Made by a program: the position numbers and the translations under genes. Below are positions 771 through 63,334 of a stretch of DNA of 64,000 bases, piece by piece. The notes below the pieces were generated by a model, which was not told the DNA's origin, made no database searches, and saw nothing but the letters and a program-made list of their open reading frames with translations. Origin of the DNA: Hydrurus foetidus (Eukaryota); assembly GCA_900617105.1 (NCBI GenBank), contig UYFQ01000594.1:1-64000 (forward strand), in the 5' to 3' direction. Numbering within the stretch: position 1 is the stretch's first letter; each line of letters begins with the position of its first letter.

Positions 771-1864
771 GGAAGAAAGACAGTGGTGGTGTCACTGTCG
801 GTAGGTGAGTGCTGATCTTCTTCACTGTCATCATGGTTGTTGTAATCTCCACCACAGTTTTGACGGTCCACGATCTCATCAAATTCACCCCCAATTTTCG
901 AAGACCGCCAATTTCAAAGTTTTGAGGCACCTTCGCAATATTTCGTGGTATGTGCAATTAATAATGGATGAAACCACTAGCATGTGATTCTCATCGATTT
1001 AAACTCCAAACTTATGGAACCAATCATTTCAGTCATCTTTTTTGGGACTTCAACGTTTGAAAAGGTACTTTATCCCTTCGAAATCAATGGTTGTGACCGG
1101 ACAAGATAAATGCATCAATATGGTTCTTCCAAAAAACGACATAACAGCCAATGAAAAACGAAATTCAAGAAATAAGAAGTCAAAGAATGCCTCTTTCTCT
1201 ACCAATAGTGGAGTACCTTCCAAGATTGCGACGAGGGTTCCTAATAGTTCAATATTCATCTACAGCGCAGAGAGAATCTCAGTTCCCAGGGAAAACCCCC
1301 CTGATTTTCCAGGAAAAATATTCCTGCCTTCCCAGGACCGAATCCCTGGCTTCTCATAAACAAATAAGTACAGGAGCACGATCTAAATGAGTGACTAATA
1401 GATCATAATTTCAAAAAATGTTAATAAATATCCATAGACTCTAACCAAATGGTTGAGAAAAATTTACTCTCATAAAATTCAAAAAGCGTCATTTTTTTTT
1501 TTGGAAATTCAGGAGCATAATTTTGCTCAGGGGCAAATTAATTGCATTTCAATTTATTTTTGAAATAAGTATCCATAGACTCTACTTTAGTACTCCGTAC
1601 AAACGGATGATAAAAAAGCTGCGTTGGCCCATATGCAATATGCATATATATATTTTGTTCAAAAAATTGCATATATGCATATATATTTTGAAGTACAAAA
1701 AAATAGGCAGTTATTCGTAGGTGATATTTCCTCTGCACCCACCATCTCTGGGACATGAATTGGACGGTCAGTCAGTCCCATTCTCGAACTTTGAACAACG
1801 TGGTCAACTTATATCTCCTATCTGCAACTCTCTAGTTACTATTTTAATTCTATCACAAAGGAAA

Positions 1865-2482
1865 ATGTTCTCCCAGCAGACATCATCATCGTCTGCATCT
1901 TCGACAGCTTCGACTTCAGCTTCATCGTCAGCATCATTTTATCAAAAGCCACTCGAAGCAAACAACTTTAGACAGCCTGACGGTCCTATTCTGCAGTTCG
2001 TGTGGATTGTCGGAGCAGCTAAAGGAAACAACATTTACGAGTGCAAACTATGTCAAGCGCGATTTCAGGGGCAGCGTGCAATTGTTTGCACTCATTTCGA
2101 GAAAAGTTTCAGTAGTCAGCGAGTTCGGGAGTGCACATCTATTCAACCGCAGCTACTTCGTGACCAGATAAAAACGTCTTCAGAAATGAAGAAAAAAGAG
2201 CTTCTTAAATCTGAGAAAAAAAGGGCATATAGTGATATGACTCAACCCGATATCGGGTCTGCCATAGCATCTCTAGGCAGACCTTCAGCCGACTCAGCGA
2301 TACTTCAGTTCATTGTCACTTGTGGAGTAGCCCCACTTATCGTGGAACATCCTGCATTCCGGAATCTGATTGCATCTTTGAGAGATGCAGGTCCTTCGTA
2401 CAAGCCTCCGAGACGTCATGAATTTGGAGTCAATTCTTCGGGCGCGGCGATATCTGATTCTAACTCCGATAATGAAAATTAA
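1865..2482 (+). pseudogene. Truncated hAT transposase N-terminus (BED zinc finger plus start of core)
   Basis: YECKLCQARF...CTHF...ECT BED-like finger. FIVTCGVAPLIVEHPAFRNLI...PSYKPPRR is a typical hAT N-core. No DDE or dimerisation domain follows. Confidence 0.8.
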
Positions 2483-2822: not shown

Positions 2823-3212
2823 TCTTGGAATAAGTCTGCCTTTTGGATCCTGGATCCAGTCAGAGCACCTGGTTGATAGCAGTGGTTCGTTCAGAACACA
2901 CTTTGCTTTCAGCTAGTCGACCAAGTCGTTCCAACAGCTCACTCAAGTGTAGGTATAATGGCTCACAGCCATATAGTCTCTTTTAATTAGAAGTGCTCAT
3001 CATGTCAAAACAAAGCAGTTCATGGCTAGCTATACTAGCTATAGTTGACTGTTCACAGTCATCATCAGTTGCAACTTCCAGTACAGTTCGAGTGATGGTC
3101 TTGAGTCTGAAAACGCTACCCTCACTCCTCCGCTTGGGCTTAGATGATATTACCCCAAAGGGATTTCCCCAAGGGGATCGTCCCCGTAGGGATAGCTATG
3201 CTATATCCAACA
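2823..3212 (-). repeat. Copia 3' LTR (390 bp, TGTTGG...CCAAGA)
   Basis: Near-identical to 8292-8675 plus 9590-9596. Confidence 0.95.
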
Positions 3213-3375: not shown

Positions 3376-6300
3376 TTAATTTCCTAAAATTTTCTTCACC
3401 ATCTTGGAAAAAACTGTTCCTTGCAATGGTTTTGTGAAGTAATCAGACGTCATATCCTCGGTTGGAACGTAGACAATGTTTACAGCACCGATGCGGATGT
3501 AGTCTGATATCCAGAATTTTCGCACCTCAATGAACCGGGTGGTTTCTGCGGTAGACCGACCTTTTGTAAGCAGCGTGATGCATGATTGATTGTCTTGTTC
3601 CAGCCTCACTGGAATCTTGCCGTGTCCTTGGTAAGCAATAAATCCTGCAAGCCAGAGCGGAATGTTCATGCCGTCAGATACTGCAATGATCTCGGACTCT
3701 GTACTTGACTTGGAATTTAGCTTCTGGACCTTGGAACTCGAAATGAAATTCCCAACCCCTAATGTGACACACATTCCTGAGGTTGATTTCATCAAATCAC
3801 GGTTGGCAAATGCAGCATCAATGGATACTGTTACTGTCGGGGCAAAGTACACCCCAGTCGTAATGGCTTGTCTCTAGTAGCCCTCAGATAGCATATGAGC
3901 CTATCGAGTTTCTTGTCGTCTTCAATTGTTGGTGCCTTTACACGTTTGCAAAGTTCACCCAACACTAATACAATGTCTGGGCGAGTTCGGTTCCCCAGGT
4001 AGAGTGCTGTAGCAACGTCGGTATGGAAGGTTTTAGCATCTTTCTCACTTAGGAATTCGCAGTCCAAGGTCCGCTCAAATAGGTGTGGGGCACCCGGTGA
4101 TGATGGGTTCCCGATGAGCTTCATACCTCGTTCAGCATGGCTCTTTTCCCTTGATGAGATCAGATCTTGAATCATTCCAATCTGCGTGACGTTCACAAAT
4201 CCTGGCTCATTGTAATCCCACATGCATCCTAGGTACGGTAGAACTCGCTCTTGAGTGGTACGAAATTGACCGTACGTTCTCAGCAAAATTTGCTCCATGT
4301 CAAGAACCGCTTTCTTGTCCACACACGTCATCTTTAAGTCATCTACGTAGACTAGGATCGTGAATTGGTTGCCTTTGACGTCCTTATTAAAGACGCAAAT
4401 ATCGCGCGGGTTAGCCGTGAAACCATTGGACCGTAAAGTTCCGGCTATTTCGTTATACCAGAGTTTGGCGGACTCGATACACCCGTAAAGTGCTTTGTCT
4501 AGTCTCACTACTAGTAACGTAAGAAAGAGATGTCTTGTTTGATGATTGCGTCGGCCACATTCTTATCAATATACATATGGAGTATTTTATCCGGTTTTTC
4601 CATCGGCATATTAGCGTTGAGGTATGCGGACCCAACGTCCCCGACCATGACGAAACGGTTTTCTACAGCAGCAATCTGTGCAACTGTAAAGATGGCAGCT
4701 ATGCTCGCTGTTGGTGATTCAACTTCATCTGGTGCATAGTCCTCTCTGACTTGAGCACGCCCGTCCACACAGAACCGCGCCTTGACCTTGTCAATTTGGC
4801 GATCACCGTTCGAGTTTAGCGTTGCAAGGTATTTCTCCACAACATTCATGTTTGAACGCAGTATCTTCTGCTTCTGAGTGGGCGACAGTTGTTCCATGTG
4901 CACTCCTGAAAATGTCCCCTTTGCAAGTAGTGATTTGACCTCTGACTCAATTGCTGCAGTAGCCTTGTCCGGAAAAAGTTTCAGTGCCCGAGTAACCGTC
5001 ATAAATGACCACTCACCCCTAATTCCTTCTTTCTGCGTTGGAATAGGTACTTTGTCGGCTACTAAGTTGAGTCGGTCTGGTGGCTTTCTGGTTCTCGTTG
5101 ATTTCTGGCGCATTTCAACAGGTGCACTGGGTACGTACGTACGCACAGTGGTAGTAGGTGGTGCCGCTGGTTGCTCCTCCGGTACTGCTTCAAATGTAGT
5201 TTCTGGTCCGGATACTTCGTCGGAAGCTGGGATGGTATGGTTTGTGTCGACCGCTGATTCCATTTCACCCCGAATCTCAATTTGGTCTTGAGTAATTTGA
5301 GGTTCCATCACGGTATCAAGCGTGTCGGTTTCATCCGGGAACACCGGTAAAATTGGAGGTGTGTGTCGGAACTGGATAGTAGGCTCCTCATCTGAAGGTG
5401 TATCCATTATGACCACATCATCAACTGCATCTCCAGTGATGTCTCTATCATGGAATGTGAATGTTGGTTCTTTTGATGTGTGTATTTTATTCTTCGATGC
5501 CCACCCGTTTACAGTGGTAATGACGAGCGGAGGTATCGGTAACACCACGTAGTGGTTGGCTGATATGACACTCCTTGTGTCAATGCGCATGAAGGTATGA
5601 GTACCTGTTCCATTCATCTTTGGCTCTAGGTATAGGCATCCAATGGTTCGTGGATCCATGCTGTTGCTAAGCACCCTGCCGGTGACTTGGCAGTATGAGC
5701 CGAATGGAGGTCCGATATCTTTTTTCGTGTCAGCCTTTCTGCCGAAGAATGCTTCGAAAGGAGAAATCCTATCTGTTCTTGTTGATGAGGGAAAGAGCAA
5801 AAGCTTCTTCGCCGAGCTCATCACAAGGTGAGGCATGAGTATATCCGGTAGCAAGTATGGTAGACTGAAGATGGTACACCGGATGGTCTCCTTTAAGTGC
5901 CTGATCATTCTTTCAATAACATGATCGTGTTGCCCTGGACCAACGGCAATCACCTCTACTCCCATGGCATTCATGTCATTGACTAGTGCCGCAATGCCAC
6001 GTTCATTATCACTTGTAAATTTCACGATGGAAATGCGTCGGGACCCGATGGTACCGAACATGCGCCTGATACTCTGCCTGAGTACCGGTGTCGTGAGGTT
6101 TTCAGTGCATGCTACCAAAACGATTCCCAATGGGTGAGTAATCGATACTAAGTAGGGCTGTCGATTTACAAACATGATATCGCAATGCATGTGTTGGTCG
6201 TCGAAGTGACGGGCCGTCGTAGGTAGTTGAGGTGGCGTCATAGGCCTCAGCCTGGTAGTGCGTCCTTTGAGTGCAGCAGCGTTTGCTCCCCAAATTTCTG

Positions 6301-8265
6301 TGGCACGCGTGACATCTTCAGGTAAGATGTCGCAGTTTAGAAATGTCCCAGCTCTCAACGCAGAAATGAATTTCTGATCTGGTGGGAATCCCAAACTCGC
6401 TTGCAAACGGCGTGCATCGATGCTTCTCTGAACTTCGCGTTTCGAGAATTTGGCTTCGTTGGCTTCCGTTGTGGCAAGTTTTGTAGAGTATAATATGTTC
6501 ATAGATGATGTTTCTATCACCACGGAGTGAGCATATGCAGTTCTGCGCTCTGCGGCGTCAGAATATCTCGGCTCTGGAGGCGTTGCCAAATCGTTGACAT
6601 ATAGCCCTCCACGATGTTGAAATTTGTAGGTATTCTGATCAGTATGAAGCAAAAATGCATCTTGATCTATTGTAGAACCCTGGCGAAACTCCCAGTTGTG
6701 TCCTTGCAGCAGACAATCCGATGCCGAGATGATGGAGAGTCCAGCACGTGGGTCAAAGTGAACGATGCCAATGTCGCGAAGGTTTGCTGTTTTAGTTACA
6801 GTGAGAGAACCATGCAAGCCATTGAATACAGTTGGAGTGCATGTCACAATGTTACTCAGCACATCTGCACATGTGATAATGGTGCCTGTAGCTCCTGTGT
6901 CGAAGATGGCCTCCGATGTACTTCGTTGATTGATGTTACGGTTGGCGGAAAAATCGGTCCGAGGACCGAGGGTTGCGAGTTTCACCGGTGAGGTGGTGTA
7001 GCACACACTACAGTTCCTTTCGTCATATTGGTTCTCGTCATCCTCTTGATCCCACATTTGGCCAAAAGCAGTGTAGACATCATCTGAAGCACTGGAGTCA
7101 ACTCCATCAGTATGTCTCCTGGCCGAATATGATATTTGTGGGGCTGAAGGGGGCTCTCCAGCGGCCTTCTTTCTGCACTCACTAGCACGATGTCCAGCCT
7201 TTCCACAGTGGTAACACGTTCCACTGAATTTACCCTCCTTCACATCTTTAGCAAACGTGACTTTAGGTTCCTTGATTTTCGCTGGGTTAATTTTCTTGGC
7301 TTTTTCTTTGACGGGTGATTTCTCTCCCTTTGGGGACCCACCCGGTTTGACGGGGTTCTTCGCTGCAAGTGCCGTATGGGGGTCACTATCGCTGATTGCA
7401 ATGCGCTACCCTTTGTCCCACGATGGAATCTAGTTGCTCCATTAATTGCCTCCACCAGGGTCTTCGGATAGATGTCAATTGCGGTGCACTCCAGGGAATT
7501 ACTGAGGTAGTTTTTGTAGTCGTGGTAGACCTGCACGGTACTACTCAGACCATCAATGAACCTCATAGATTGTTGTTTTGCATCTGGAATTTGTGCTGCT
7601 GGAACTCCTGTTGCAGCGAGTCGATCAAAAAGCTTCACCGCACGACGTCCGTACGTTACGATGTCTTCGCCCGTACTCATGGTGAGTGTATACCAATCCC
7701 GTAGGGCCTGGGACCGCTCTAATTCCTGATTCCCATCACATCTTGATGTGACTACTGACTTGATTACATCAAGTAGTCCAAGTGGGTCGTCAAATTTGAC
7801 AGCGATGAAGTTTGCCTCCACTACCAGAATTGCATTGAGTGATGGTGAACACATCGATCGAATCAGTCGATAAGCTGATCTACGGTCCTCCATTTGCTTT
7901 CTCCTCATCTTTGTCACGACCGCTCTGTCGTTATTCAGGTCTGCCATTATTAACTTGGCTCGAAATCCTTTTGGATCAGTGATTTCGTCCAACGCCTCCA
8001 ATGCAGTGAAGTCTGGTTCCGAAAATAGGTACACCTCGTAGGCCGGTTTTAGGGTCAGCATCATAGGGTCGGGACAGATCGACTCGAGATCCTGAAAGTT
8101 GACTCTCATGTACTCTTTCAGTCTCTGAATGTTATCGTCCCATTCTTTCCACCCGTTGTGAGTGATCTCAGGGAGACTCTCTGGCCTCACACCATCTCCA
8201 GGCGTGGTTTTTTCGGCCTTCTCAGATTTGGATTGGGCAGCGCCCTTCTCGCCTTGCTTGCTCAT
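3376..8265 (-). CDS. Copia gag-pol polyprotein, interrupted at ~7380, ~4511 and ~3840
   Basis: Gag 8265-7380; zinc knuckle CYHCGKAGHRASEC; protease FDTGA; integrase HCD..FTSDNE..IER; RT KARF..G, DVGSAYLNA, KALYG, YVDD; RNase H IDAA..SSTESE..EQDNQS..SDYFTKPL. Confidence 0.93.
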
Positions 8266-8291
8266 TCTGAGCAGCTCACGACTTCTAATTA

Positions 8292-9596
8292 TCTTGGAAT
8301 AAGTCTGCCTTTTGGATCCTGGATCCAGTCAGAGCACCTGGTTGATAGCAGTGGTTCGTTCAGAACACACTTTGCTTTCAGCTAGTCGACCAAGTCGTTC
8401 CAACAGCTCACTCAAGTGTAGGTATAATGGCTCACAGCCATATAGTCTCTTTTAATTAGAAGTGCTCATCATGTCAAAACAAAGCAGTTCATGGCTAGCT
8501 ATACTAGCTATAGTTGACTGTTCACAGTCATCATCAGTTGCAACTTCCAGTACAGTTCGAGTGATGGTCTTGAGTCTGAAAACGCTACCCTCGCTCCTCC
8601 GCTTGGGCTTAGATGATATTACCCCAAAGGGATTTCCCCCAAGGGGATCGTCCCCGTAGGGATAGCTATGCTATAGAGTGGGGGACCCTTTATTTCTTAA
8701 AAACTCCAATTAAGAACGCTTTATTTTCCAAAATTTTACGGAAATGACTCTAAATCCGTGAAATAAAATATCGTTTAAAGGGTGATTATAAGACCTCTGA
8801 GAAGTACGAAATCGATATCCGGAATGCGGAAAGCGTCTCACACGGATTTTTTAAATACGGAAATGGCATAGTTGGGATCTGACATTTTTCAAAACCTCAA
8901 TGGAACATCACAATCGACACGAGGCATTCTCTGCAGATCACACCAGATGCAGCAGCTGACCAATAAATCCCGCTGCTGTGGCTTTTCTCCAACTCTGGTT
9001 TGCATGGGGTGTTTTGCCCCCCTCCATGTTCGCTTTCTCCTCGAAAAACTTTTGAACAACTTTCTGAACAACTTTTGGTGCAATCGGCACTGTTTTTTTC
9101 ATAGCAGCATTCTCTTTCGCTGAGGCCATCATGATCAAAAAAGGATTCATATTCTTGGATACGGGGGAGGGCAATTTTGCAACGCAGACAGATACTGATC
9201 TTTAAAACGTCAGAAAGTTGTCGGGACACGTTTGCAATTGTCGCAAAGTTGCAGCAGGCAACGTTTCCTTTCCATCCTACAGGGACCGATTGAACTATCT
9301 TTCGGTTAACCGGTTAGCTTTGCTACCAGATTCGGCTAGTTGCAGAATCCGTTTCACGAAAATTGGGCTAAATTCGTACATTGATTTCAATTAAGAAATG
9401 ATTATTCTGACACATTTAGACCCCCCAAACATAACTCCTTTCCAGTCATCCATATCAAAAATTAGATAGCCTCCAATTTTCTAGAGTATCAGACGAGTAC
9501 AGAAATGTACTCAGAAGTACCATCCGGTTGATGGTCCGTTTACTGGAATTAATCTTGGAGAGCAGTTCTTAATTAGGTCCCCCACTCTATCCAACA
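8292..9596 (-). repeat. Copia 5' LTR, split by a 912-bp TIR element near its outer end
   Basis: 8292-8675 matches the 3' LTR up to CTATA. The remaining TCCAACA resumes at 9590-9596. Confidence 0.93.
8676..9587. mobile_element. Non-autonomous TIR element with TA TSD
   Basis: 12-bp TIRs GAGTGGGGGACC / GGTCCCCCACTC. The empty site CTATATCCAACA is known from the sister LTR and shows a TA duplication. Confidence 0.9.
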
Positions 9597-34317: not shown

Positions 34318-38524
<4,207 letters not shown>

Positions 38525-41629: not shown

Positions 41630-41849
41630 TTACCGTAGCAGAATAAAATGTCTGCTTTTCGTGCCCAAAACTCAGACACCTCGGGTCACGTCCAAATCAC
41701 CCCACACAATACTAAAAAAGCAAAAAATCTGGGGAACCTTCCTCTTTATGATTTTTAGTATGGTGTGGGCTCCGTTTTTGACCATGCCACACACACGTTT
41801 GAGTTGGATTTTGGGCATGAAAAGCAGACATTTTATTCTGCTACGGTAA
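41630..41849. mobile_element. 220-bp MITE with ~40-bp TIRs and TA flanks
   Basis: TTACCGTAGCAGAATAAAATGTCTGCTTTTC(G)TGCCCAAAA ... TTTTGGGCA(T)GAAAAGCAGACATTTTATTCTGCTACGGTAA, with TA on both sides. Confidence 0.85.
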
Positions 41850-41854
41850 TATAG

Positions 41855-44800
41855 TTCTATTCCCAAAAGCTTTCCACTCTCCTATTTCGTACGTTCGCGT
41901 AAGTACGGTTGACCCAAGGTCCCCACTTACAGCACCGAGTATGAACACCGACAAACGCGCACGTACCCGACCTCTCATTTAGCTCACAAAACCCGTCGCT
42001 GGACTTGGCACCGTACTTATGCGTACGTGCGCACCACATTGGTGGACTTGGTCACTCATAAGACTTGTTTTGTTACATTGGGGTTCGCTCTTGTGAGCAC
42101 GGGGAAAGTATCTCCTTCTTCTAGAAGGTTCTCCATGTGGATTGTTATGGCTCCTTCCCCCAGTGAACACATGAGTGGTCAGATAAACAAAACGATAGAT
42201 AAAATGATAGGCATGGTTGGCTACGGGGTGTGAAAAAAGCTCGGCACTCGGCGGCGCAGTATTTACGAAATATGCAAATTGGTATGCTGCACTCTACGCT
42301 ACAGTATGGGCAGGCGTGCAAATCAGTACTGTACGCTTGTGCGAGGTTCAGGTTTGAAAAAAAAATCACATCGAGGTCCAGGAATTCCACGAAGTGGAAA
42401 TCTTCTCTACAGTCCAGAGAACCTATGTTGGAATCCGCTCACTACTCCCACCTTCAGATTCTATTCCCAAAAGCTTTCCACTCTCCTATTTCGTACGTTC
42501 GCGTAAGTACGGTTGACCCAAGGTCCCCACTTACAGCACCGAGTATGAACACCGACAAACGCGCACGTACCCGACCTCTCATTTAGCTCACAAAACCCGT
42601 CGCTGGACTTGGCACCGTACTTACGCGTACGTGCGCACCACATTGGTGGACTTGGTCACTCATAAGACTTGTTTTGTTACATTGGGGTTCGCTCTTGTGA
42701 GCACGGGGAAAGTATCTCCTTCTTCTAGAAGGTTCTCCATGTGGATTGTTATGGCTCCTTCCCCCAGTGAACACATGAGTGGTCAGATAAACAAAACGAT
42801 AGATAAAATGATAGGCATGGTTGGCTACGGGGTGTGAAAAAAGCTCGGCACTCGGCGGCGCAGTATTTACGAAATATGCAAATTGGTATGCTGCACTCTA
42901 CGCTACAGTATGGGCAGGCGTGCAAATCAGTACTGTACGCTTGTGCGAGGTTCAGGTTTGAAAAGAAAAATCACATCGAGGTCCAGGAATTCCACGAAGT
43001 GGAAATCTTCTCTACAGTCCAGAGAACCCATGTTGGAATCCGCTCACTACTCCCACCTTCAGATTCTATTCCCAAAAGCTTTCCACTCTCCTATTTCGTA
43101 CGTTCGCGTAAGTACGGTTGACCCAAGGTCCCCACTTACAGCACCGAGTATGTACACCGACAAACGCGCACGTACCCGACCTCTCATTTAGCTCACAAAA
43201 CCCGTCGCTGGACTTGGCACCGTACTTACGCGTACGTGCGCACCACATTGGTGGACTTGGTCACTCATAAGACTTGTTTTGTTATATTACATTGGGGTTC
43301 GCTCTTGTGAGCACGGGGAAAGTATCTCCTTCTTCTAGAAGGTTCTCCATGTGGATTGTTATGGCTCCTTCCCCCAGTGAACACATGAGTGGTCAGATAA
43401 ACAAAACGATAGATAAAATGATAGGCATGGTTGGCTACGGGGTGTGAAAAAAGCTCGGCACTCGGCGGCGCAGTATTTACGAAATATGCAAATTGGTATG
43501 CTGCACTCTACGCTACAGTATGGGCAGGCGTGCAAATCAGTACTGTACGCTTGTGCGAGGTTCAGGTTTGAAAAAAAAAATCACATCGAGGTCCAGGAAT
43601 TCCACGAAGTGGAAATCTTCTCTACAGTCCAGAGAACCTATGTTGGAATCCGCTCACTACTCCCACCTTCAGATTCTATTCCCAAAAGCTTTCCACTCTC
43701 CTATTTCGTACGTTCGCGTAAGTACGGTTGACCCAAGGTCCCCACTTACAGCACCGAGTATGAACACCGACAAACGCGCACGTACCCGACCTCTCATTTA
43801 GCTCACAAAACCCGTCGCTGGACTTGGCACCGTACTTATGCGTACGTGCGCACCACATTGGTGGACTTGGTCACTCATAAGACTTGTTTTGTTACATTGG
43901 GGTTCGCTCTTGTGAGCACGGGGAAAGTATCTCCTTCTTCTAGAAGGTTCTCCATGTGGATTGTTATGGCTCCTTCCCCCAGTGAACACATGAGTGGTCA
44001 GATAAACAAAACGATAGATAAAATGATAGGCATGGTTGGCTACGGGGTGTGAAAAAAGCTCGGCACTCGGCGGCGCAGTATTTACGAAATATGCAAATTG
44101 GTATGCTGCACTCTACGCTACAGTATGGGCAGGCGTGCAAATCAGTACTGTACGCTTGTGCGAGGTTCAGGTTTGAAAAAAAAATCACATCGAGGTCCAG
44201 GAATTCCACGAAGTGGAAATCTTCTCTACAGTCCAGAGAACCCATGTTGGAATCCGCTCACTACTCCCACCTTCAGATTCTATTCCCAAAAGCTTTCCAC
44301 TCTCCTATTTCGTACGTTCGCGTAAGTACGGTTGACCCAAGGTCCCCACTTACAGCACCGAGTATGTACACCGACAAACGCGCACGTACCCGACCTCTCA
44401 TTTAGCTCACAAAACCCGTCGCTGGACTTGGCACCGTACTTACGCGTACGTGCGCACCACATTGGTGGACTTGGTCCCTCATAAGACTTGTTTTGTTATA
44501 TTACATTGGGGTTCGCTCTTGTGAGCACGGGGAAAGTATCTCCTTCTTCTAGAAGGTTCTCCATGTGGATTGTTATGGCTCCTTCCCCAGTGAACACATG
44601 AGTGGTCAGATAAACAAAACGATAGATAAAATGATAGGCATGGTTGGCTACGGGGTGTGAAAAAAGCTCGGCACTCGGCGGCGCAGTATTTACGAAATAT
44701 GCAAATTGGTATGCTGCACTCTACGCTACAGTATGGGCAGGCGTGCAAATCAGTACTGTACGCTTGTGCGAGGTTCAGGTTTGAAAAGGAAAATCACATC

Positions 44801-45198
44801 GAGGTCCAGGAATTCCACGAAGTGGAAATCTTCTCTACAGTCCAGAGAACCCATGTTGGAATCCGCTCACTACTCCCACCTTCAGATTCTATTCCCAAAA
44901 GCTTTCCACTCTCCTATTTCGTACGTTCGCGTAAGTACGGTTGACCCAAGGTCCCCACTTACAGCACCGAGTATGTACACCGACAAACGCGCACGTACCC
45001 GACCTCTCATTTAGCTCACAAAACCCGTCGCTGGACTTGGCACCGTACTTACGCGTACGTGCGCACCACATTGGTGGACTTGGTCACTCATAAGACTTGT
45101 TTTGTTATATTACATTGGGGTTCGCTCTTGTGAGCACGGGGAAAGTATCTCCTTCTTCTAGAAGGTTCTCCATGTGGATTGTTATGGCTCCTTCCCCC
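41855..45198. repeat. Tandem array of 604-610-bp units (5 full plus 1 partial), made of the YR element's terminal repeats
   Basis: Units start TTCTATTCCC at 41855, 42459, 43064, 43674, 44278 and 44887, and differ at only a few sites. Confidence 0.97.
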
Positions 45199-45227
45199 CC
45201 ACCCCGCCGAAGGACTCGTAGCATCCC

Positions 45228-46451
45228 TCACACTGCACCAAGCGGCAGCCAACTTCTCACATCGTCCGTACTTGGTTGAGTACCCCCGACCAGAGAGTTC
45301 GACGACAGTGGTCCGTGTCCTCCTGCAGAGTAGTCGTAAACGGCTCTCATGACCGTGGACCCTTGGACGTAGTTCCCTCTATCGATCATGTCTAGCTGCG
45401 ATACCCCCATAGCTCTCATCTGCGTGGTCGCTGCTTTCCGAAGAGAGTGCGATGAGAAATAGTCCGCCGGTAGTCCGGCATCGCGACACGCTCCCTTAAC
45501 AGTCTCTCTCACCATTCTTCCCTGAAGTAGTTTCCTGTCTACTTTCCCTGACTGTCGCTCCAGATACCGACAGAAGAGCTCGTCTGAAGGCAGCACCTTC
45601 GAGAAAGCTATGAACGTAACTAGGTTCTATGGAAACTGACTCTCTCCCGATGATCGTCTGCAAACCGTCTTGGCCTTCACGGGTGCTTTAGTTTTCTGGG
45701 ACGCGGTAAGTACTCGGAGCCCCAGTACGTGCGAGGCTGGAGCTCTACCCTCCCTTAGATCCCTGAAGAAGGACGCCCCGCCACCCACTTGGTAGCTTTC
45801 CGTAGCCCCTCGGATTCCAAACACCAAATCGCTGCACCTAACACTGTGATCCCCCGCTCCCACCTCATGGGCGGTGTACTCGGATAACCGAGCGTCCATG
45901 TCGTAACCCCACATGCACCCAATGTAGGTCATCCTGCTATCGATATCCCCTCGTTCCCACCCCCTGCCAGCCCAGAGCTTCACCCTCATGTCCTTGAGTA
46001 AGCTCTCGCACAGCGGCAGCTTCACACTCCCTTTGGGTCCCCCGTCTTTCTTCGCCCGCAACTCTTTCGTGCTCATGCGGCATGCTGTTCGTGCAGCCGC
46101 TACTATCGCTGAATCCAGAAAAGCGGTTGACTGTAGCGCCGCTGCGAACTTCAGTCGGATCCCTGCCGTCACAGAGGTGGCCTGCTTCCCCCGCATCCCC
46201 TCGTCATAGCGTGATTGTAGAAAGAGGCCCACTATGGCCGGTTTGTCTTCCTCCAGCCATTCGCTTAGCAGGGGGTCCTCGGTGTCTAGGTCCTCATATA
46301 AGAATCTGCACCACTTGATCCAGTGCCCTTCGTATGCTTTTGCTGTCGCCGCAGTGACCGACTGCGCTACGAACGACCCCACTCCCGCCCTGCTGAGCTC
46401 CGGTAACTGGCGCCGAAGACCTAAAGAAAGAGTGAGGGGGTCCAGGGACAC
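45228..46451 (-). pseudogene. Tyrosine recombinase with one in-frame TAG at 45627-45629
   Basis: N-terminal TAKAYEGHWIKWCRFL; catalytic ARLSEY, SQKT, SHSLRKAATT, RGNY..AVY. The two ORF-track pieces are in the same frame. Confidence 0.9.
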
Positions 46452-46483
46452 GGCGGGTAAGGGTGTTAGTGCGATGTAGATGT

Positions 46484-48990
46484 CTATGAGGCTATGGCCT
46501 CGACTATCTTATGCCAAAAAGTTATGAAGTTGACTTCATTTATAAATGGCTCGCATGGACGGCAGCTCTCTATAAGCTGTAGCACCCGACTGTCCTCGCC
46601 CAGTTTAAGATCCGGTACCCCTCTCAACCCTAGACCTGCTAAGACCTCATCAACCGTCCTCCCTGACTCTGATACTCTCGAGAGCTGATCACAACGAAAG
46701 TTTGCCTCCCCCGAGATATGCGTTGCGACCTTGGCTTCTATGCCGTACGATACACACACTAGAGTGTACACCATTGCGGCGTTCGATACTTGACTCCCAC
46801 GGGTTCTCTCCTTTTGAGCCCATGTAAGTGCAGATATACTGTCTCCACGTATCTCGATGTCCAGGTGTGTTACACCTAATCGCACTAACCCTAGAATTCC
46901 GACTATTGAGCCGATGAACTCGCACACATTCTGAAACTTCGACTCCGTCACGAAGCCGAGTTGTCGGAGATCTACCGCACTGGCCCCCACACACACCTCC
47001 GAGTCGCGGTCCCTTCTATAAATGAGACAACCTGCACCGTGCAGTGAAGCATCCGTCTCGACAATGTACTCAGTCACATCACTTTTAATGATGCGAGGGT
47101 TCGGGTGAACCTCTGTTCGTTGTAGCGAACGAGGAATAGGATTGCTCGCCAGCATCTGATTGCTATTTAGGTTTCCTCCGCGAGAGTAAATGTCGCGTGG
47201 CGGTCTAGTCTGCCTGCCATCGCTCTATTCAGAGCCCCACAGAAGGGGCGCATGATTCGACATATGCGTCCGTATCGACTCCCCCATGATGCCAATCTCT
47301 GTATGGTCTTCAGGGACATCTTCCCACTTAGGTTGATAGCCATGAAGCCGTGGACCGCCCTGAGGAAATTCTTCCTCGCGATTGAAACTAGTTTTAGGTT
47401 TAAATCGATCGTGTAGCCTATGACTTTGAGTCGTGTGCCCGTCTCGGACTTCTCATCCGCCACTGCCTTGGGCCCCAAAAGACTAGTGCAGATGTCCTTG
47501 GCGAGCTCCATGTCAGATGCCAGGTCAGACTGAAAGCAGACTCCTATCACGTCGTCCACGTACATCTCTGTGGAGCTTCTCAGAGCTCGGGCGAATTCCC
47601 ATTTCAATGCCCTTGTCACCACCTGGAACGCTGCTGGTGTGCATGCCCAACCAAATATGCCACAGAGCTGTAAGTAGATGAGGTCGCCTGTTACTTCCAT
47701 GCCAAACAGGCTGACATCGTCCGGTCGGAACGACAGAAGGGTATATGCACCTTTCAGGTCCATTTTCCAGATTCTCAAATCGCTCCAACTCTTCCCTGAA
47801 TGGCTCGCCCCATTCACCGTAAAGAAGTCTAATATCATGACCGCTATGTCATCTATAGTCGGATGACGAATAGGCCCATAGTAGTCTTCTGCTTCCTTGG
47901 TTGCTTCTTCTGTGTTGAGTGCAGTCCCATCCACGTACGTCATATCGCCTATCGGACGCCCAGATTTCTTGCCTCTCTTCTGCGCCCAGTGTGCTGTGCA
48001 CAGATGCAGTCTAGGGATGGTGTCTATCGCTAGACTCTTTGGCAACAGGAACCCTAGACCACCTGACACGGTCTCGCCTACCATCTTATTCACAGCTTGA
48101 TGGACCTTCAGGTAGGAGGTGCGGAGCGGTGTCAGAACACCTGCACCGTTCGGTTTGAAGCCGGCCGGTATTGGAACACGCATTCCCACAGCCAAGTCGC
48201 GCAACAGCTCTAGTTCCGGGTTATCGGCTGCCAGTCTACTGATGCGCTCCAGATTAAGCCGACTAGATTGCAGTGTCGTCAATCTAGTCCTTACCATATC
48301 CGAGAAGTCGTGATTTGCTTCTTTGAAGGACTTTAAGTCGTTCGCAAGCATGTCCTCCGGAAACTCGTATCCCTGTGCCCACTCCACAGCTTCAACTACG
48401 CCGTAGTTTGTGGCTGCCATATCCTGCGCATCTTTCACAGTTTCCACCAGATCCGCGAAAGGGAATACTTCCCCTGGTGCGAAGTATGATGCCATGGTGG
48501 CCATTATTCCACGTATCGTGGCTGATTCTACGCACTCTAGAGTGTGCTCCTCCTCCAGCGACCGCATGTAGGCGGGCATTCTATCTGGAAGAGTCTCCTC
48601 TTCATCACATCTGGATGACTGCATGTGGGCAGTCACCGCATCAGATCTCGCTATTAGCACATCTTCAGCAGGTGTTCGCATGTGGGCGAACGCTTTGTCG
48701 GATCTCATCCTCGAAAGGACTCCAACCGATGCTTGCATGTGAGCCAACATCGTGCCCTGCCCCCTTGCTACCTCCATTCTATCAGACGTTTGCATGTGGG
48801 CAAACATCGAGGTGTCTCTGCATGTCTCCTCTTCAGATGGCTTCTGCACGTGAGGTAGCTTCAAGCGAGATCTCTTTCTACACTCCTCATCTCTCCCTGC
48901 ATCCTCACCCGCACTTGATGCCGCCCCACATCGACCAGGGTTCCATTGCTTGTCCTGTGGTTGACTCCGCGGAGTGCAACCACCTTCATC
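46484..48990 (-). pseudogene. YR-element pol: reverse transcriptase plus RNase H (in-frame TAA at 47167, frameshift at ~47087)
   Basis: KMDLKGAY, IFGWACTP, YVDD, VIGYTID (RT); TDASLHGAG, NVCEF, RGDSISAL, HISGEANFRCDQLSR (RNase H). Confidence 0.92.
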
Positions 48991-50640
48991 TCACGCCTTT
49001 GCTCTCATTTTCTTCAGTGCCGCGTCCCGCAAGTTCTCAGGTAAACATTTGATAGCGACGGAAATATCCGCCTTGGCAAGGGCGGATACGTTGCAGTGCT
49101 CCTTGGGACAGGCCGCGCCTCGTGTGCACACCACTAACTTTCCATTCTCTTTCTTGGCTGCAAAGTGTGCCAGCACATCATAGGAGCAGATGACACTCGC
49201 ACTAGGGGCCGCGACCGCCTTCTTTGCTCCAGCAGCGCTAGGTGTAGCGGTGCCCTTGCGAGGTGTTAGTGCTAGGGCGGGCTTGATGTATGTCCTGAAG
49301 TGCAGGTCTTGTAGGAGCACTTTGTCTCCACACAGGCTTTGTACTGTCGCATCCATCATGGCTGACAGGAGGATCGCACAACCGGACGGTGTGTGCATCG
49401 TAAGCTCTGGAAAAGACCGTGACTGTCGCTCCGTCCGGACCGATGAGCCCCATCGCTCCAGGCAACTTTCCATCGCGTGTTGAAGCAGATCATCAGGTAC
49501 TAGCTTCAATGGATCAGCTGCTCCTATGAGTGCCACACGTGTTTGCTGGAAGCAGTCCAGGAAACTCCCCGAGTAGAACACTCTCATAGCCATCTCCAGG
49601 GTTGACAGGTCCTCTGCCACCTGGCGACGACCCTGCAGGGTAGGTTTGCTCTGTAGGGTGACCCCCGGTGATAGGCGGAAGTCACTCAGCACTATACTCC
49701 CACCACGTCCAAATTTGGCCTGGAGAAACGCTGTAAGGGTTGTGACTTCAGTCGCCACTTTCAGCGTTGCAATTTGGAAAATCAAAGGCGCCCCTGAGAA
49801 GGGTCCCATAGAATCCAAAAATGGATCAATAGCTGCTGCCCAGATGTATCTTAAGTACTCCTCCACCTGTAGAAGATTTCCTCTCCCAGCCACCTCAAGT
49901 TCTCTTCCTTTCGTCAGTCTCCAGACTGGTCCCAGTATAGCCTCTCTCTTCGAAGACTGTGTCATGTCGCGACACAGCCGACGGCCTCCATCTAAGTCAT
50001 CCAAATATCCCCTAGCTACCGTCTCACCTGTCTTCTTCAATGACGTTGTGCTGGCTCCCTCAGTCTGCTCCTCGACACTTACTGCACCCGACTCTGAAAT
50101 GTTGCCTAGATTGGCACTGTATTCTTCTGCGGACTCTTCGTTGATTCCCATAGGTACCACGAACCTCGATGGAGTGCTAAACTTAACGAAGGATCCTGCG
50201 AGAATAGTGAGGTCGGAGAAAATTGTACCCAGAATTCTTGTCGTTGTCGGCGTAATCGAGATGATTATCGCGAGCACCCAATTGAGATCAGCTACTGCGT
50301 CGCCGTTCAAAGTCTCCCCCTCATCGAGATCCTCTGCAGGCCACATGATAAACGTCGCTGCTGTTACATCGACTGCTCTTCTAATTGTAGACAGTTCTAC
50401 AGCGAAACGCTGCCCCTCTTCTGTTAGATTGTTTCCTGTCATTGCAGCTGCTGCCGCCAATCTTGCAGCAGTTGTGTCTGAAATGATATGGAAACGTGGT
50501 CCGATCACCGCATCGGTGTCTCTATTGTGCCTTTTCCTCGAGACTTTCGTCGACGAGTTACTCGAAACGTTCGTCGCACCCACGTCCTGATTGTAGATAT
50601 CTATCAGGATGTTTGCGATGACGTCTGTCGGTGCGCTCAT
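48991..50640 (-). CDS. gag-like ORF1 of the YR retrotransposon (~549 aa)
   Basis: Long open frame from MSAPTD, ending in a Cys/His finger (ICSY...CTRGAACPKEH), in the ORF1 position upstream of pol. Confidence 0.8.
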   Translation of the reverse strand: MSAPTDVIANILIDIYNQDVGATNVSSNSSTKVSRKRHNRDTDAVIGPRFHIISDTTAARLAAAAAMTGNNLTEEGQRFAVELSTIRRAVDVTAATFIMWPAEDLDEGETLNGDAVADLNWVLAIIISITPTTTRILGTIFSDLTILAGSFVKFSTPSRFVVPMGINEESAEEYSANLGNISESGAVSVEEQTEGASTTSLKKTGETVARGYLDDLDGGRRLCRDMTQSSKREAILGPVWRLTKGRELEVAGRGNLLQVEEYLRYIWAAAIDPFLDSMGPFSGAPLIFQIATLKVATEVTTLTAFLQAKFGRGGSIVLSDFRLSPGVTLQSKPTLQGRRQVAEDLSTLEMAMRVFYSGSFLDCFQQTRVALIGAADPLKLVPDDLLQHAMESCLERWGSSVRTERQSRSFPELTMHTPSGCAILLSAMMDATVQSLCGDKVLLQDLHFRTYIKPALALTPRKGTATPSAAGAKKAVAAPSASVICSYDVLAHFAAKKENGKLVVCTRGAACPKEHCNVSALAKADISVAIKCLPENLRDAALKKMRAKA

Positions 50641-50936
50641 GGTCCTTTTGCCGCTCAGATTTGCTAAAAGTAGGAAGAGTTTTGCAACTTTTTTGCAACC
50701 GTTGTCAGTACGACACTCCGGAAACTGAAAACTGAAAAAATCTCGGCACTCGGCGGCGCAGTATTTACGAAATATGCAAATTGGTATGCTGCACTCTACG
50801 CTACAGTATGGGCAGGCGTGCAAATCAGTACTGTACGCTTGTGCGAGGTTCAGGTTTGAAAAGGAAAATCACATCGAGGTCCAGGAATTCCACGAAGTGG
50901 AAATCTTCTCTACAGTCCAGAGAACCCATGTTGGAA

Positions 50937-53900
50937 TTGGCATTTCGCGATTCTACCACTTGTTTTTGAAATTCTGCTAGCAGAATTTATGTCTTTTTTG
51001 ACCCTTTTTTTGAGGAATTCTGCCACTTGTAAAAAGGAAGTTGCTGCTTAAGTTCGTATTGTGCCACTTTAAAAAACGGAATTTCCACTTTACATTTAAG
51101 TGATGCCATTTTAACGGTATCATTATGCTACTACGTACTTAAATTATGCTACTTAAAAAGTTGTTAGATCATTAATATTGCTTTCTAGATCGAAAATTCT
51201 CATTGTATCTGATCATTACCGAAGCTTCCTTATAATCATTCAGACATTGGTGCTGATGGTAATCAAAAAGGCAATTTAATAAAGAAAACACTCGCTCAAC
51301 TGATGCACTAGAGCACATCACTAATGCCACCTCAGCGGCCACCTTGTACCATAGGGGTAATGAAATATAATATCTTCTCCAAAATGCCCACCCGTCATCT
51401 TCTTCTCGGTCAAATCCGTCGACCAATTTCTTGTAAGTGTGTAGCTCTGCGTGCAGGCCATCAAATAGAGGCACCGCTACAGGCAAGTGCTGAATGAAAA
51501 CGATTTCTTCTTCGAGTGCCTCATATGTAGTATCTTTGACAAACTGGTAGCCAACAAGACGGCAACCTCTAAGTACTTGCAGGGTGTCCTTGAATCTTGT
51601 CAGCGAGTCTGACTCAATCTTCTCCAACACTACGACAGCTTTAGCAACAGTCTGCTGTATGAGTTCTTGTTGTCGAGGTAAGTTGTTTGGAGCTATTTGT
51701 GCAGCTACAGCAGTGCATGCTGAAACACAGTCGACCTCCATATATCTGTGGACGACATTCCTCATGTGATGATTGAGATTGTTCCATGAATCGAAAGCGT
51801 AGGGTGCTAGAAAACCATCTCCTTCAAAGTGGTTGCAAAAGTGTGCTATCGGTTCTCCTGCATCTTTGATGAGGGCCAACTCCAAGCGGAGTGCATCCTC
51901 ACCTGATGGAAGGTGATTACCAGCAGGGTTGTGGAGGATTCCTCGCAGCGTTTCCATCAGATTATCGCACCCAACATCTTGATTTTCTATTATGTCTCTG
52001 ATAAGGTCGAATCTGTCGTTTACTTGGACAGCAGTGCGAAACTCAGCCATCCAGCGAATGGCATGATTTTTCATGCCACCTTCACCGAGTGCTCTCCGTG
52101 TAGCGGCCCGAACCTTCGAACCTTGGGTCAGACATTGGCTCCATGCCTGAAGAAAGTTGTGCGCGGTCGGTGTCGCCTTCTCAAACAACTTCATGGGAAG
52201 GTTTGATGTATGCGAGACACATACGAGATCACTGCACTCTGCAAATATGGCCTTAATGACTTCATTGGCAACTCCATTAGTCGCACAGCCATCGACAGTG
52301 TTGAATCTCAGTTTCAGGGGATTCTGTTGTGCCAATGTCATTACTTGCTTGATGACTTGCGCTGCCAGAGAGTTGCCGTACAATGGACTCTCTAGGAAGC
52401 TGAGAGACAGGAGCCGCTGCTGAATAGCTTTTTTCGGGCAGACGAAGCGGACTACCTAAATTCAATCATTCAGTATTGGTCAGTAATGTTGATCACATTT
52501 TTTAAGGGAATTTGAATCGTAGGGAACTTACCACAGCCAGTGACTCAGCTACATTGATCGTTCCATCGGAGCTGATTGAGAAAGCTGCTGCTTCGTTGAG
52601 CTCACTGATTGTTTCTACATGCTCTTTTTTCCTTAACAGAGGGATCATGTCGCTGCATGCTTGCTTCGGGCAGATGGCATGGTAGTCTTCGAGTAGTAGA
52701 CGGATTTCACAACCGCTATCAAGCATCGTAAACGGCATTCCAGTTTTCAAGAGGGCGTGAGCTACTGACATACGATATGCGTTGACATTCAGAGGTAACG
52801 TTGCTCCTGCTGCTTTCTCTTCCGTTTCGTTCTCGGCTACCAGGCCTTTATAACTCAGCATTGTCAACTGACTCTTGTCTCTCCTCTTCATGTTATTTTC
52901 ATGCGTTTCGCCAGTGATATGACTCTTGATGCTGGAGGACTTCAGCGCTATTTCTTGCATTCCACAGGCTCGGCAGCACAATTTTCCTGCTACGACAGTG
53001 AGGCCACTTTCTGAGAACTCTTTGGCGCGATCGTAGACAGACTTCGCATTTTTTCTTGTTGTCGATCTTGCCTTTAATATCGACCTTTTGTATACACCCT
53101 TGCTTGTTCTTGTTTTTCTTTTTCTGTCAAGTTTACTTTTCTCAGGAAGGTCTTCATTTATCCTTTCTAATTTATTTTCGTTATCCGATCCACTATCTTG
53201 ATCCGATGGTTCTGGTGAACTAACATCATCACTGTCGACATTGTAATTTTTCTTGGGGACATAATCTTCCTCGTCATCCGAATCCGCGTCATCTGACGCA
53301 CAAATTTCTATTTGCTTAAAAACTCTCTTAGTCCCCTTTCTGGTAATAGCTTTGGGCTTTAGGGCAACTCTTTCAGAGGAGGTACTAGATCTGACGTCGC
53401 CTGCAGACCCGGCACCAGGCTTAAAGTAGGAATATACCGCCGTGGCTGTGGGCGTTGATGTATAATTGGAAGATGGCTGAGAAGCCGACGACGACGATGA
53501 CGAGCTGCATGGCAAATTTCGCCTCTTCATCTCACTGGCCTTGCTTTCATCATCATCCTCATCGGTATCGTAATCAGCAGTAATCTCTTGCATTCCGGTG
53601 ATATTTTGGCCGATAATTAAAAGTGGAGGATGCTCGAAATCAAGGTCAGAGAAGAGTGAAGCGATAGGCGGGAGCGGGAATGTAGTAAAATAAACCATCA
53701 TATCACAGCAGCCATCCAATCTTGCGGCTAAAAAAGAAATTTGGCTACTTTAAAATTGGAGAATGCTACTATTATGTTTTGATTTCTACTTAATTATAAA
53801 ATTATGCCACTACTATTTCCATTATGCCACTTATAATTTTGTCTTGCCACTTAGCATAAATAAGTGTGAATTTATGCCACTTGTTCTGCTAGCAGAATCC

Positions 53901-58584: not shown

Positions 58585-60459
58585 TCAATGGGAGTATTGA
58601 CCCTGAAGTAGGTGAGCTGGTGAGAGGTTATTATTCGAGTACTCCGTCTTGACATGATCCAACTCTACATTCGTTGCGTACACAGGCTGAGGCTGGCAAA
58701 TTGACATCTGTTGATGGCCCGATTCGAAACTCGGATCCATTTTCTGTGACCCACAAATTCTTCCTCCGAGCGAGGAGAAGAACCCTGAGCTGGGCGCGGC
58801 TGAGGGTTGATACGACAGCCTTTGGAAGCCGCAGAACACGTCGTTGATTTCGGGTTGTTCCATGGCGTTGCTTTGGCCGGTCGAGAAGCAACCGGATGCT
58901 GCGTTGGTCGCTGCAATCGAACAGCAGCCTGTGACACCCCAGTCGAACGAGGATCTGTAGAATGGTACGTCAATATCGTTGGAGCGACCGACCTGGGTCT
59001 CGATAACGATACCGTCGTCCATCCAGTCGTCGAAAATGTTCTCATCGAGGTCGATGCTTGATGCTGACGGGATGTTCATTCTGAAGTCTTCGCTGAAGGT
59101 TGGGGACAGGGGCATTGTGGACACGGGCGCGAGTCTGTCCTTCACGGACAGTCCATTGAAAGGCGTTCTGTTGTACGTTTGTGAGACGTATGACAGATCC
59201 GTGCTGCCGGAAAGTCGTAAGAGCGCTTTTCCTATGGAGCTGGAGAGCGGCAGTGGCATGGCGAAAGTGGGGGAAGGACACGTTGACACTCTGGAGGACG
59301 ACGGCGAAATGACAGTGGCTGTGGGCTGCTGGGCAGCATGGTGATTTCGCTGCTGGCTCTGCATAGATATAAGGTTGCTATGCGTGAGGTCGGAGAGGAG
59401 GTCTTGCGTGCTGTTGATCGGTTGAGCCCAGCCGGCGCTCATGACTGTTGTCTCTGGAGAGAAATGATGCGTCCTGATCTGACTATTGCTATTCATCTTT
59501 TTGCTTTTCTTTGCGCACTTGTGTGTCTTGGAAGATTTCATCGTCGAACCACTTTGGGCCGGCATTATGTTCCGTATCAGGTCGGCGGAAGATATTGAGC
59601 TGTCGAACATATAAGGTACTACTGAGTTGGAGAAGACGAAGAGCGATCCGTTTTGGAAGCAGTCTGGGGACGGATATGCCAGGATAGGGCAGTGGGCCTG
59701 CATCATGGCTATGGAAGAGCCGCCTGAGGCGATGTCCGTGCGCATCCGACCGCTCGTCTCGGATCCATTTGCGGAGTTCGAGTCGCTGTCGGTGTTCCCG
59801 TCGTTATAGTGGTATGATGATTTCTCGTAATCCCCTGGTTCCTTACGGGATTGGGCGCGGCACGTGGCATGAAATCTGTTTTTGATAGCATTGTCGGTGC
59901 GCCCTGGCAGAGCTTTTGTTATCTGAAAAGGAGTGAGGTGTGACATTAGTCTCGACTGTGCGGTTTGTTCATTTAAGTAGAATTGGGAAGTAAATTGCTC
60001 TCACCTTCGCCCATTGGTTACCGATGGTTTTTTGCATCGTAGATAGTATCAAGTCCTCCTGATAGTATCGGATGGAATGGTGGTTCGTTAGGGATCCGTG
60101 CTTCCGTTCTCGCAGATAAATTTTAAAAAGGCAGAAGAATTTTACCTCTGCTGTCCACTCTCCTTTCTTTACAGAGGGATCAAGGTGATTGTACCACCTT
60201 TCTCTGCACTGCTTCCCCGTTCTCTCGGTAAAACTTTCTCCAACTTTGGTCCACGAACAGGTGCCGTGTTCTTCGATGAGGCTCTTTAATTTCAAGTCCT
60301 CCTCGCCAGTCCATATTTCTAATTGCGGAAGATGTTTAGGTTTATCGTTACAGGGGTGGCCAGTTGATTCGTTCAGCTGCAGGTGGAGTGTTGCTCACTT
60401 TTGCTGCATGTGAGCAGGGTGTGTGAGTTGGGGTCTCGCGTGAGTTCCTTGGACATCAT
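58585..60459 (-). CDS. R2R3-Myb transcription factor, about 4 exons
   Basis: WTGEEDLKL..SWTKV..RTGKQCRERWYNHLDPSVKKGEWTAE | EDLIL..GNQWAK | ITKALPGRTDNAIKNRF, then a long Ser-rich tail. First exon is tentative. Confidence 0.93.
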
Positions 60460-62582: not shown

Positions 62583-63334
62583 TTACTGCTGCTTCGCGGC
62601 TTTCTCAGCTAAGTAGACAGCGTGCTCTTCCTTGGTTCTGATGTGACCTCCTCTGCCCTCAAGCATGCTCAAGTAGCCGGATCTTCTTACAGTGTCAGGA
62701 TCCGCGGCTGCCCATGCCGAGGGTACGTACCATGCGACGAACCATCCGAGGCAACTGCATTAGATTAGAAGGGCACGGAGGGGATCACTCAAAGGAACTT
62801 TTTTGGAGATGAAATTTTTGCAGATGAAAGAAGGTGCTAATAATACTCCGGTATAAATAAAGCAAAGTCAACAGCTTATCCGTTGATGCAAAGCAAATTG
62901 AGAGGCAGCACAGAAAGGGAATGTGGGTGACACAGATGACTCTAGTAGCGTTGAAAACGCGCAACTTACACGAAACCCAGGAAGAAGCCGTAATTGACAG
63001 TCTTACGCATCTCGTGATTAATGAGTCTACCCCAACCAAAGTTCTGCCATACATTGGGATTCTTAACGAAAGGAGCATGATATATCTTGTTAGTGCCGCA
63101 AACTAAGAGCATCTCGTATTTTGTTAGCTCAGGTTGGGTCATGACTTGCTCGATTGTGACAGGATCGGTTAGGGCGGCCTTCAAAGTTGTCTCGCATGTC
63201 GCGGCGGCAATACGTCTCAATTTCAAGATATTTTTGACGATGCCAATCTTGGGGTGGTTTAAGTTCACGTTATCTGGGAGGGTTGCGATGCATCTTCGTG
63301 CGACACTTCCGAATTTCGCGGACCTGAGCATCAT
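62583..63334 (-). CDS. Small predicted mitochondrial single-pass membrane protein
   Basis: Transit-like MMLRSAKFGSVARRCIA. A GTAAG..TGCAG intron (~62969-62756) joins YGFFLGFV|CLGWFVAWYVPSAW (TM helix), and the frame ends AEKAAKQQ*. Confidence 0.6.

Follow-up and report, generated by a model that had tools for sequence, protein, structure and literature searches.

This locus raises the question of how a Ty1/copia element starts reverse transcription when no tRNA primer-binding site (PBS) follows its 5' LTR. The first 8 nt after the LTR contain no TGG, and the 11 nt directly after it on the minus strand (8291-8281, TAATTAGAAGT) are the exact reverse complement of an 11-mer inside the LTR (8463-8453, ACTTCTAATTA), with a further copy of that 11-mer in the 3' LTR at 2994-2984. 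These observations of the first-pass annotation were all confirmed. We consider that the element is very probably self-primed in the manner of Tf1, with the 5' end of its own RNA, and that it belongs to a deep lineage. This mechanism, which the first-pass annotation had proposed, is supported by covariation of the two sequences in 11 of 11 families and by an initiator-like motif at the start of the duplex in 8 of 11.

The window, that is, the whole stretch of 64,000 nucleotides that was analysed, is eukaryotic, with many microsatellites and with genes that contain introns. Of the 19 sequencing runs that contain at least half of its sampled words, one is an unlabelled metagenome, one a coded organism and the rest are metagenomes from freshwater or sediment. 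The host would thus be a freshwater microbial eukaryote, at a guess a stramenopile. The Ty1/copia element occupies 8675 to 2823 of the minus strand and has the following parts.

8292..8675, minus strand: 5' LTR, 384 nt, ending in ...CCAAGA and without the outer 7 nt of the family LTR
8453..8463, minus strand: predicted self-primer ACTTCTAATTA, exact complement of the PBS, with its first base in a CA(+1)CTT initiator-like context
8281..8291, minus strand: predicted PBS TAATTAGAAGT, directly after the 5' LTR
7243..8265, minus strand: first piece of gag, with its ATG at 8265 and a frame break near 7380
4514..7405, minus strand: gag zinc knuckle, protease, integrase and start of the reverse transcriptase (RT), with a frame break near 4520-4560
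3834..4562, minus strand: RT core with YVDD, RVT_2 at 39.5 bits, 88% identical to the relative P0257, with a frame break near 3840
3376..3873, minus strand: RNase H piece, with copia-type RNase H motifs in the translation, 87% identical to P0257
3213..3219, minus strand: short polypurine-tract-like motif AGGGGTG, preceding the 3' LTR
2823..3212, minus strand: 3' LTR, 390 nt, running from TGTTGGA to TCCAAGA and carrying the other copy of the 11-mer (2994-2984)

The coding region is in four pieces with 3 frame breaks, and the pieces are 84–88% identical to P0257, an intact relative of 1639 aa (87% to its residues 1-299 for the first gag piece and 84% for the piece at 4514..7405). At two of the three frame breaks, contigs from other samples show indel differences. 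The 4514..7405 piece has Pfam matches to zf-CCHC and RVT_2; Pfam profiles gave no match for protease or integrase there, and both were read from motifs in the translation. The domain order in the translations is that of copia, with integrase before RT-RNase H, and the RT is of the RVT_2 type above the cut-off, also in intact relatives; the gypsy domain order and RT type that define Tf1/sushi elements were not found in the window element. The 5' and 3' LTRs differ in their alignment by one substitution and one single-base indel. The element is a young, frameshifted Ty1/copia copy.

Two lines of evidence place the LTR end at 8292, namely the pair of LTR copies and the dissimilar flanks in 9 contigs of run X7. 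The loose ends of contigs of the same run (8675 in 7 contigs and 8292 in 9) set the family termini as TGTTGGA/TCCAAGA, and because contigs on the LTR fix these termini, the 5' LTR of the window copy was recognised as lacking 7 outer nt. The LTR ends are 5'-TG...GA-3', unlike the TG...CA criterion for copia; TG...GA ends are known from Tos17 (bioRxiv 10.1101/137141). Non-canonical ends were seen as GA in the window family (8292 and 2823) and apparently as CG in the related locus L012. Copia elements are also expected to have a 5-bp target-site duplication; one was sought at the window element and none was found. The outer end of the 5' LTR is lost in this copy. At 8674-8676 the left flank meets the LTR through a 2-nt overlap, and a contig of X11 carries the flank on into other sequence. 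A later deletion or rearrangement appears to have shaped the 5' junction of this copy and would account for the absent target-site duplication.

Several other features were noted in the window. Just past the 3' LTR, an ORF with a BED-like zinc finger (1721-2482, plus strand) resembles the start of a DNA transposase. A tyrosine-recombinase retrotransposon of the DIRS/Ngaro type lies at 41753-50937 (minus strand), with an RT carrying YVDD, RNase H and recombinase motifs identified by eye and no Pfam match. Its 205-bp 5' repeat (50733-50937) recurs within a 3' array of about 5.5 near-identical units of 604-610 bp (41855-45198), an expanded split-direct-repeat end. Adjoining this element is a hAT-type transposase in two ORFs (51172-53749, minus strand) with a weak Pfam Dimer_Tnp_hAT match. 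Host genes include NDUFV2, the 24-kDa subunit of complex I, with short exons and microsatellite-filled introns (35815-37270, plus strand), a MYB gene (58585-60394) and an orphan gene of 122 aa with six homologues (62969-63334).

Watson-Crick pairing between the PBS and the LTR ends at 11 bp on both sides in the window copy, as the first-pass annotation had stated. In the plant copia lineage TAR, the test for self-priming asked for 10 bp or more of complementarity, beginning 0-5 bp past the LTR (PMC6317226); the window element has 11 bp at offset 0. Pairing of 11 bp was reached by 12 of 30,000 dinucleotide shuffles of the LTR with offsets of 0-5 allowed, and at 1 of 832 internal positions of the element against the LTR. 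When the whole LTR-leader region of the window element was shuffled and no anchor was used, an 11-bp inverted repeat arose somewhere in 12 of 500 shuffles. Variants within the window family keep the first 10 PBS bases, with base 11 changed or interrupted, so that 11 bp is no fixed rule. Perfect pairing in the relatives ranges from 7 to 16 bp, and exactly 11 bp, which had been put forward as the signature, was therefore given up. Among the 40 family-contig rows covered, of 46, no variant fell at 8282-8291 or 8453-8463 (about 2 expected on a rough estimate, which alone is not significant). Some diverged contigs align over 8415-8481 or 8436-8474 and nowhere else, which indicates that this part of the LTR is conserved.

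Relatives of the element were collected in two scans using RT and integrase motif patterns, which gave 22 related loci (12 + 10). Because they were found through such patterns, the relatives share RT and integrase motifs by construction; their LTRs played no part in the choice. Three scans of viral contigs found no relatives. Ten of the loci (L013-L022) are contigs of this retrotransposon group in bacterial genome bins and are most likely binning contaminants. The LTR-leader junction was present in 12 of the 22 loci, representing 10 families; L015 and L019 were left out as repeats of the L014 and L004 families, and L007, L009, L010, L011, L013, L016, L018, L020, L021 and L022, in which the junction is absent, were also left out. 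The identity of the RT-RNase H region (RT-RH) to P0257 is 30–41% in nine families, with L006 too short to measure, so the covariation was examined at an RT-RH identity of at most about 41%, that is, against distant families outside the clade of the window element. For the relatives, whose contigs show one LTR, the LTR ends were placed from terminal motifs and are therefore less sure than those of the window element. A blind terminal-repeat rule placed the chosen LTR end first in three of the five families tried, second in L001 and outside the top three in L014, and L014 has a poor terminal inverted repeat. The window element and L001, L002, L003, L007, L014, L016 and L018 have a common GGGGTG-TG junction.

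The first-pass annotation had suggested examining related copia families for covariation between the PBS and the LTR 11-mer, and covariation was found in all 11 testable families, window included. Within the stretch from the pol stop to the gag start, the perfect inverted repeat of greatest length has a 3' arm that begins at the LTR end or 1 nt before it in every one of the 11 families, at a distance of 16-65 nt from the gag start; its 5' arm lies inside the LTR, about 65-225 nt upstream of the LTR end. The letters themselves differ: the 11 PBS sequences are all distinct, and each pairs best with its own LTR (11 of 11), over 7-16 bp compared with 4-9 bp in 110 cross pairs. Nine of the 11 families have at least 10 perfect bp; L004 has 9 and L001 has 7 (12 with one G-U pair). 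None of the 11 has a TGG in the 8 nt that follow the LTR. When families were taken singly and without an anchor, seven exceeded chance (0-12 of 500 shuffles), and L001 (418 of 500), L004 (227), L017 (45) and L006 (38) did not. With the LTR end given, eight of the 10 correctly anchored families were matched by at most 3 of 2,000 shuffles, L004 by 22 and L001 by 394.

The start of the duplex was compared with the expected start of transcription. An initiator-like context at the beginning of the LTR 11-mer, which had been noted before, was borne out as CA(+1)CTT in the window element, and 8 of 11 families have CA(+1)Y within -2..+1 of the base that opens the duplex (the per-position background is 0.0275, giving p about 2e-6 for a range of positions picked after seeing the data). 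In L002, L005, L008 and L012, the A of CA lies just outside the perfect duplex; in L017 the motif fits only with a bulged duplex, and it is absent in L001 and L004. The oomycete initiator is YCAYTYY, and an initiator (INR) has also been seen in a diatom (PMC3599244). The TATAG motifs reported upstream are present, at -49 and -40; by eye, the upstream sequences of the relatives show no counterpart at that place. TATAG as a TATA box was rejected as support.

The window duplex forms with a mean pair probability of 0.94-0.95, and in folds from the putative start, the mean duplex pair probability is at least 0.75 in 10 of 11 families; in L006 a rival pairing across the LTR end wins, and the duplex probability is 0.01. 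Folding does not locate the start, because the window duplex forms equally well from upstream starts.

In Tf1, the RNA folds back, RNase H cleaves after the paired stretch, and the new end is extended into U5 (PMC7175516). We propose that transcription by RNA polymerase II begins on the A of the initiator-like CA, at 8463 or no more than 2 nt from it. By analogy with Tf1, the first 10-11 nt of the transcript would fold back onto the PBS, closing a loop of about 160 nt. The RNase H of the element would then cut after the paired stretch, and its RT would extend the new 3' end into U5, giving minus-strand strong-stop DNA. The geometry fits, since in each of the 11 families the 3'-terminal base of the stretch is paired with the nucleotide that immediately follows the LTR. 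The predicted primer would be about 11-17 nt long across the lineage, with the +1 base unpaired in several families. Seven of the 11 PBSs start with TAA, which predicts primers ending in UUA for these and may reflect a cleavage preference.

Covariation and folding show selection on the pairing but do not show what it is used for. The duplex could be a selected structure of the leader RNA (for packaging, dimerisation or translation control), with the primer elsewhere, such as a host small RNA. In the fungal GalEa copia, a conserved hairpin for which no mechanism is known occupies the PBS position (PMC5445492). However, both arms of that hairpin lie downstream of the LTR, and the authors of that study report that they found no LTR complement. 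In the families studied here, the 3' arm begins at the LTR end, where a primer must anneal, in 11 of 11, and the 5' arm at an initiator-like motif in 8 of 11; no other primer site was seen. A role of the duplex as leader structure only is thus improbable in our judgement, and self-priming remains the preferred reading.

Another candidate primer for the window family is the 5' half of the host tRNA-Arg(UCU), cut in the anticodon stem, with the LTR match as a relic or a second route. PBS bases 2-12 (11 nt) are complementary to the anticodon arm of tRNA-Arg(UCU), which the first-pass annotation had overlooked. Half-tRNA priming has precedents in FunCo1, a fungal copia with a similar PBS that matches an internal part of tRNA-Lys (PMC5445492), and in Osser, Bryco and Bianca. 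ARAGORN called tRNA-Arg(tct) in 5 of 9 viral matches; the search pattern was derived from the PBS, so these calls show only that such arms exist. No tRNA gene was found within the 64-kb window, and the tRNA-Arg arm was compared using viral genes. A tRNA-Arg half, however, leaves the exact LTR copy and the 10 relatives unexplained, and the base-11 variants leave at most 9 nt for it but 10 bp for self-pairing. A loose anticodon-arm pattern matched five relatives, with the anticodons AAA, TTT, ATT, ATA and TCG, and five matched none. In our judgement, the arms matched in the first five are atypical of real tRNAs. Priming by this tRNA half is accordingly improbable, a minor but genuine alternative for the window family. 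The chance that the 11-bp match arose by coincidence in a single AT-rich, degraded copy is negligible: 12 of 500 shuffles of the LTR-leader region without an anchor do yield such a repeat somewhere, but at the PBS position the figure is 12 of 30,000, and the arrangement recurs in 10 of 10 other families.

To place the self-pairing elements among copia, quick IQ-TREE trees of RT-RH were built, unrooted and without bootstrap, and with no TAR, CoDi, GalEa or Ty1 references. In the 100-row tree, for which diatom-type matches were thinned and six loci were too short to enter, the window element falls in a 32-row clade that is sister to a 22-row clade and apart from a 25-row Fistulifera/Fragilaria clade. 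The 43-row tree held 10 tested elements with RT, 5 rows of the diatom clade, 14 further relatives and 14 mainstream copia, the named ones being from Tanacetum, Centaurea, Micractinium and Cordylochernes (land-plant, green-algal and arthropod sources among them). A long branch with SH-aLRT 100 splits the 14 mainstream copia from all other rows, and the diatom clade is nested among the self-pairing elements. Against Pfam RVT_2, the scores of the window lineage are no higher than 60-108 bits.

Because the self-pairing elements and the diatom clade stand apart from mainstream copia on this RT-RH tree, which holds no TAR rows, self-priming here likely has an origin separate from that in TAR. We consider it probable that tRNA-independence arose lineage-wide in this deep protist copia branch, diatom clade included, at the root of the branch and independently of both plant TAR and Tf1. 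If the branch diverged as early as its long stem suggests, self-priming could even be the ancestral state of copia, which we regard as unlikely.

The first-pass annotation knew of no described self-priming copia group. This novelty claim falls because Neumann et al. (2019, PMC6317226) predict self-priming for TAR (89% of 203 elements) and refer to previous suggestions of it in Houba and Osr-1. No paper describing self-priming in protist copia was found in a literature search that had most subscription journals and Repbase Reports outside its coverage. Maumus et al. (2009, PMC2806351) define CoDiI and CoDiII, and a word search of the main text of that paper finds no discussion of primer sites.

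In the sources consulted, self-priming is described as experimentally proven for Tf1, whereas for copia it has been a sequence-based prediction in one plant lineage. The present analysis adds another copia lineage, a much deeper one, whose signature covaries between families that are only 30–41% alike in RT-RH; covariation at such distances would make self-priming lineage-wide and old. The series of duplexes, with 7-16 bp, bulges and an unpaired +1 base, is natural material on what the RNase H of copia needs. These elements also bear on whether tRNA priming is ancestral. Benachenhou et al. (2013, PMC3601003) proposed that self-priming preceded tRNA priming, and if the ancestral reading is true, this proposal of late tRNA priming becomes directly testable. 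Annotation is affected as well: a pipeline that discards LTR candidates lacking a PBS call, like the one used for a diatom genome (PMC7466962), would probably miss such elements.

Compared with known systems, the window element differs from Tf1 and Tf2 of Schizosaccharomyces pombe, which belong to the Tf1/sushi-Tcn1 group of Ty3/gypsy, in its copia domain order and RVT_2-type RT. A further difference from Tf1 lies in the range of perfect pairing, 7 to 16 bp from family to family, and in a putative +1 base that frequently stays unpaired. Like TAR (Houba, Osr-1 and Fourf), it belongs to the copia superfamily and passes the same self-priming test; the hosts of TAR are plants, whereas the window lineage lies across a long, fully supported branch from unlabelled plant copia. 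With regard to the diatom copia lineages CoDiI and CoDiII, the comparison covered named diatom proteins: the window element shares its side of the tree with proteins of Fistulifera solaris (P0066) and Fragilaria crotonensis (P0156), at about 35% identity in RT-RH. Its family nevertheless forms a clade of its own. From its motifs, we would guess that the window lineage is CoDiII-like.

As in the copia elements primed by half tRNAs (FunCo1, Bianca, Osser and Bryco), a TGG-type PBS is absent and the PBS of the window element resembles the complement of an anticodon arm. In contrast to these, the PBS here has an exact complement in its own LTR, and the two change together across families. The Conserved Hairpin Site of GalEa is similar in placing a self-complementary sequence where a tRNA PBS would be (PMC5445492); its arms both lie downstream of the LTR, 12-41 bp apart, whereas here the 5' arm lies inside the LTR.
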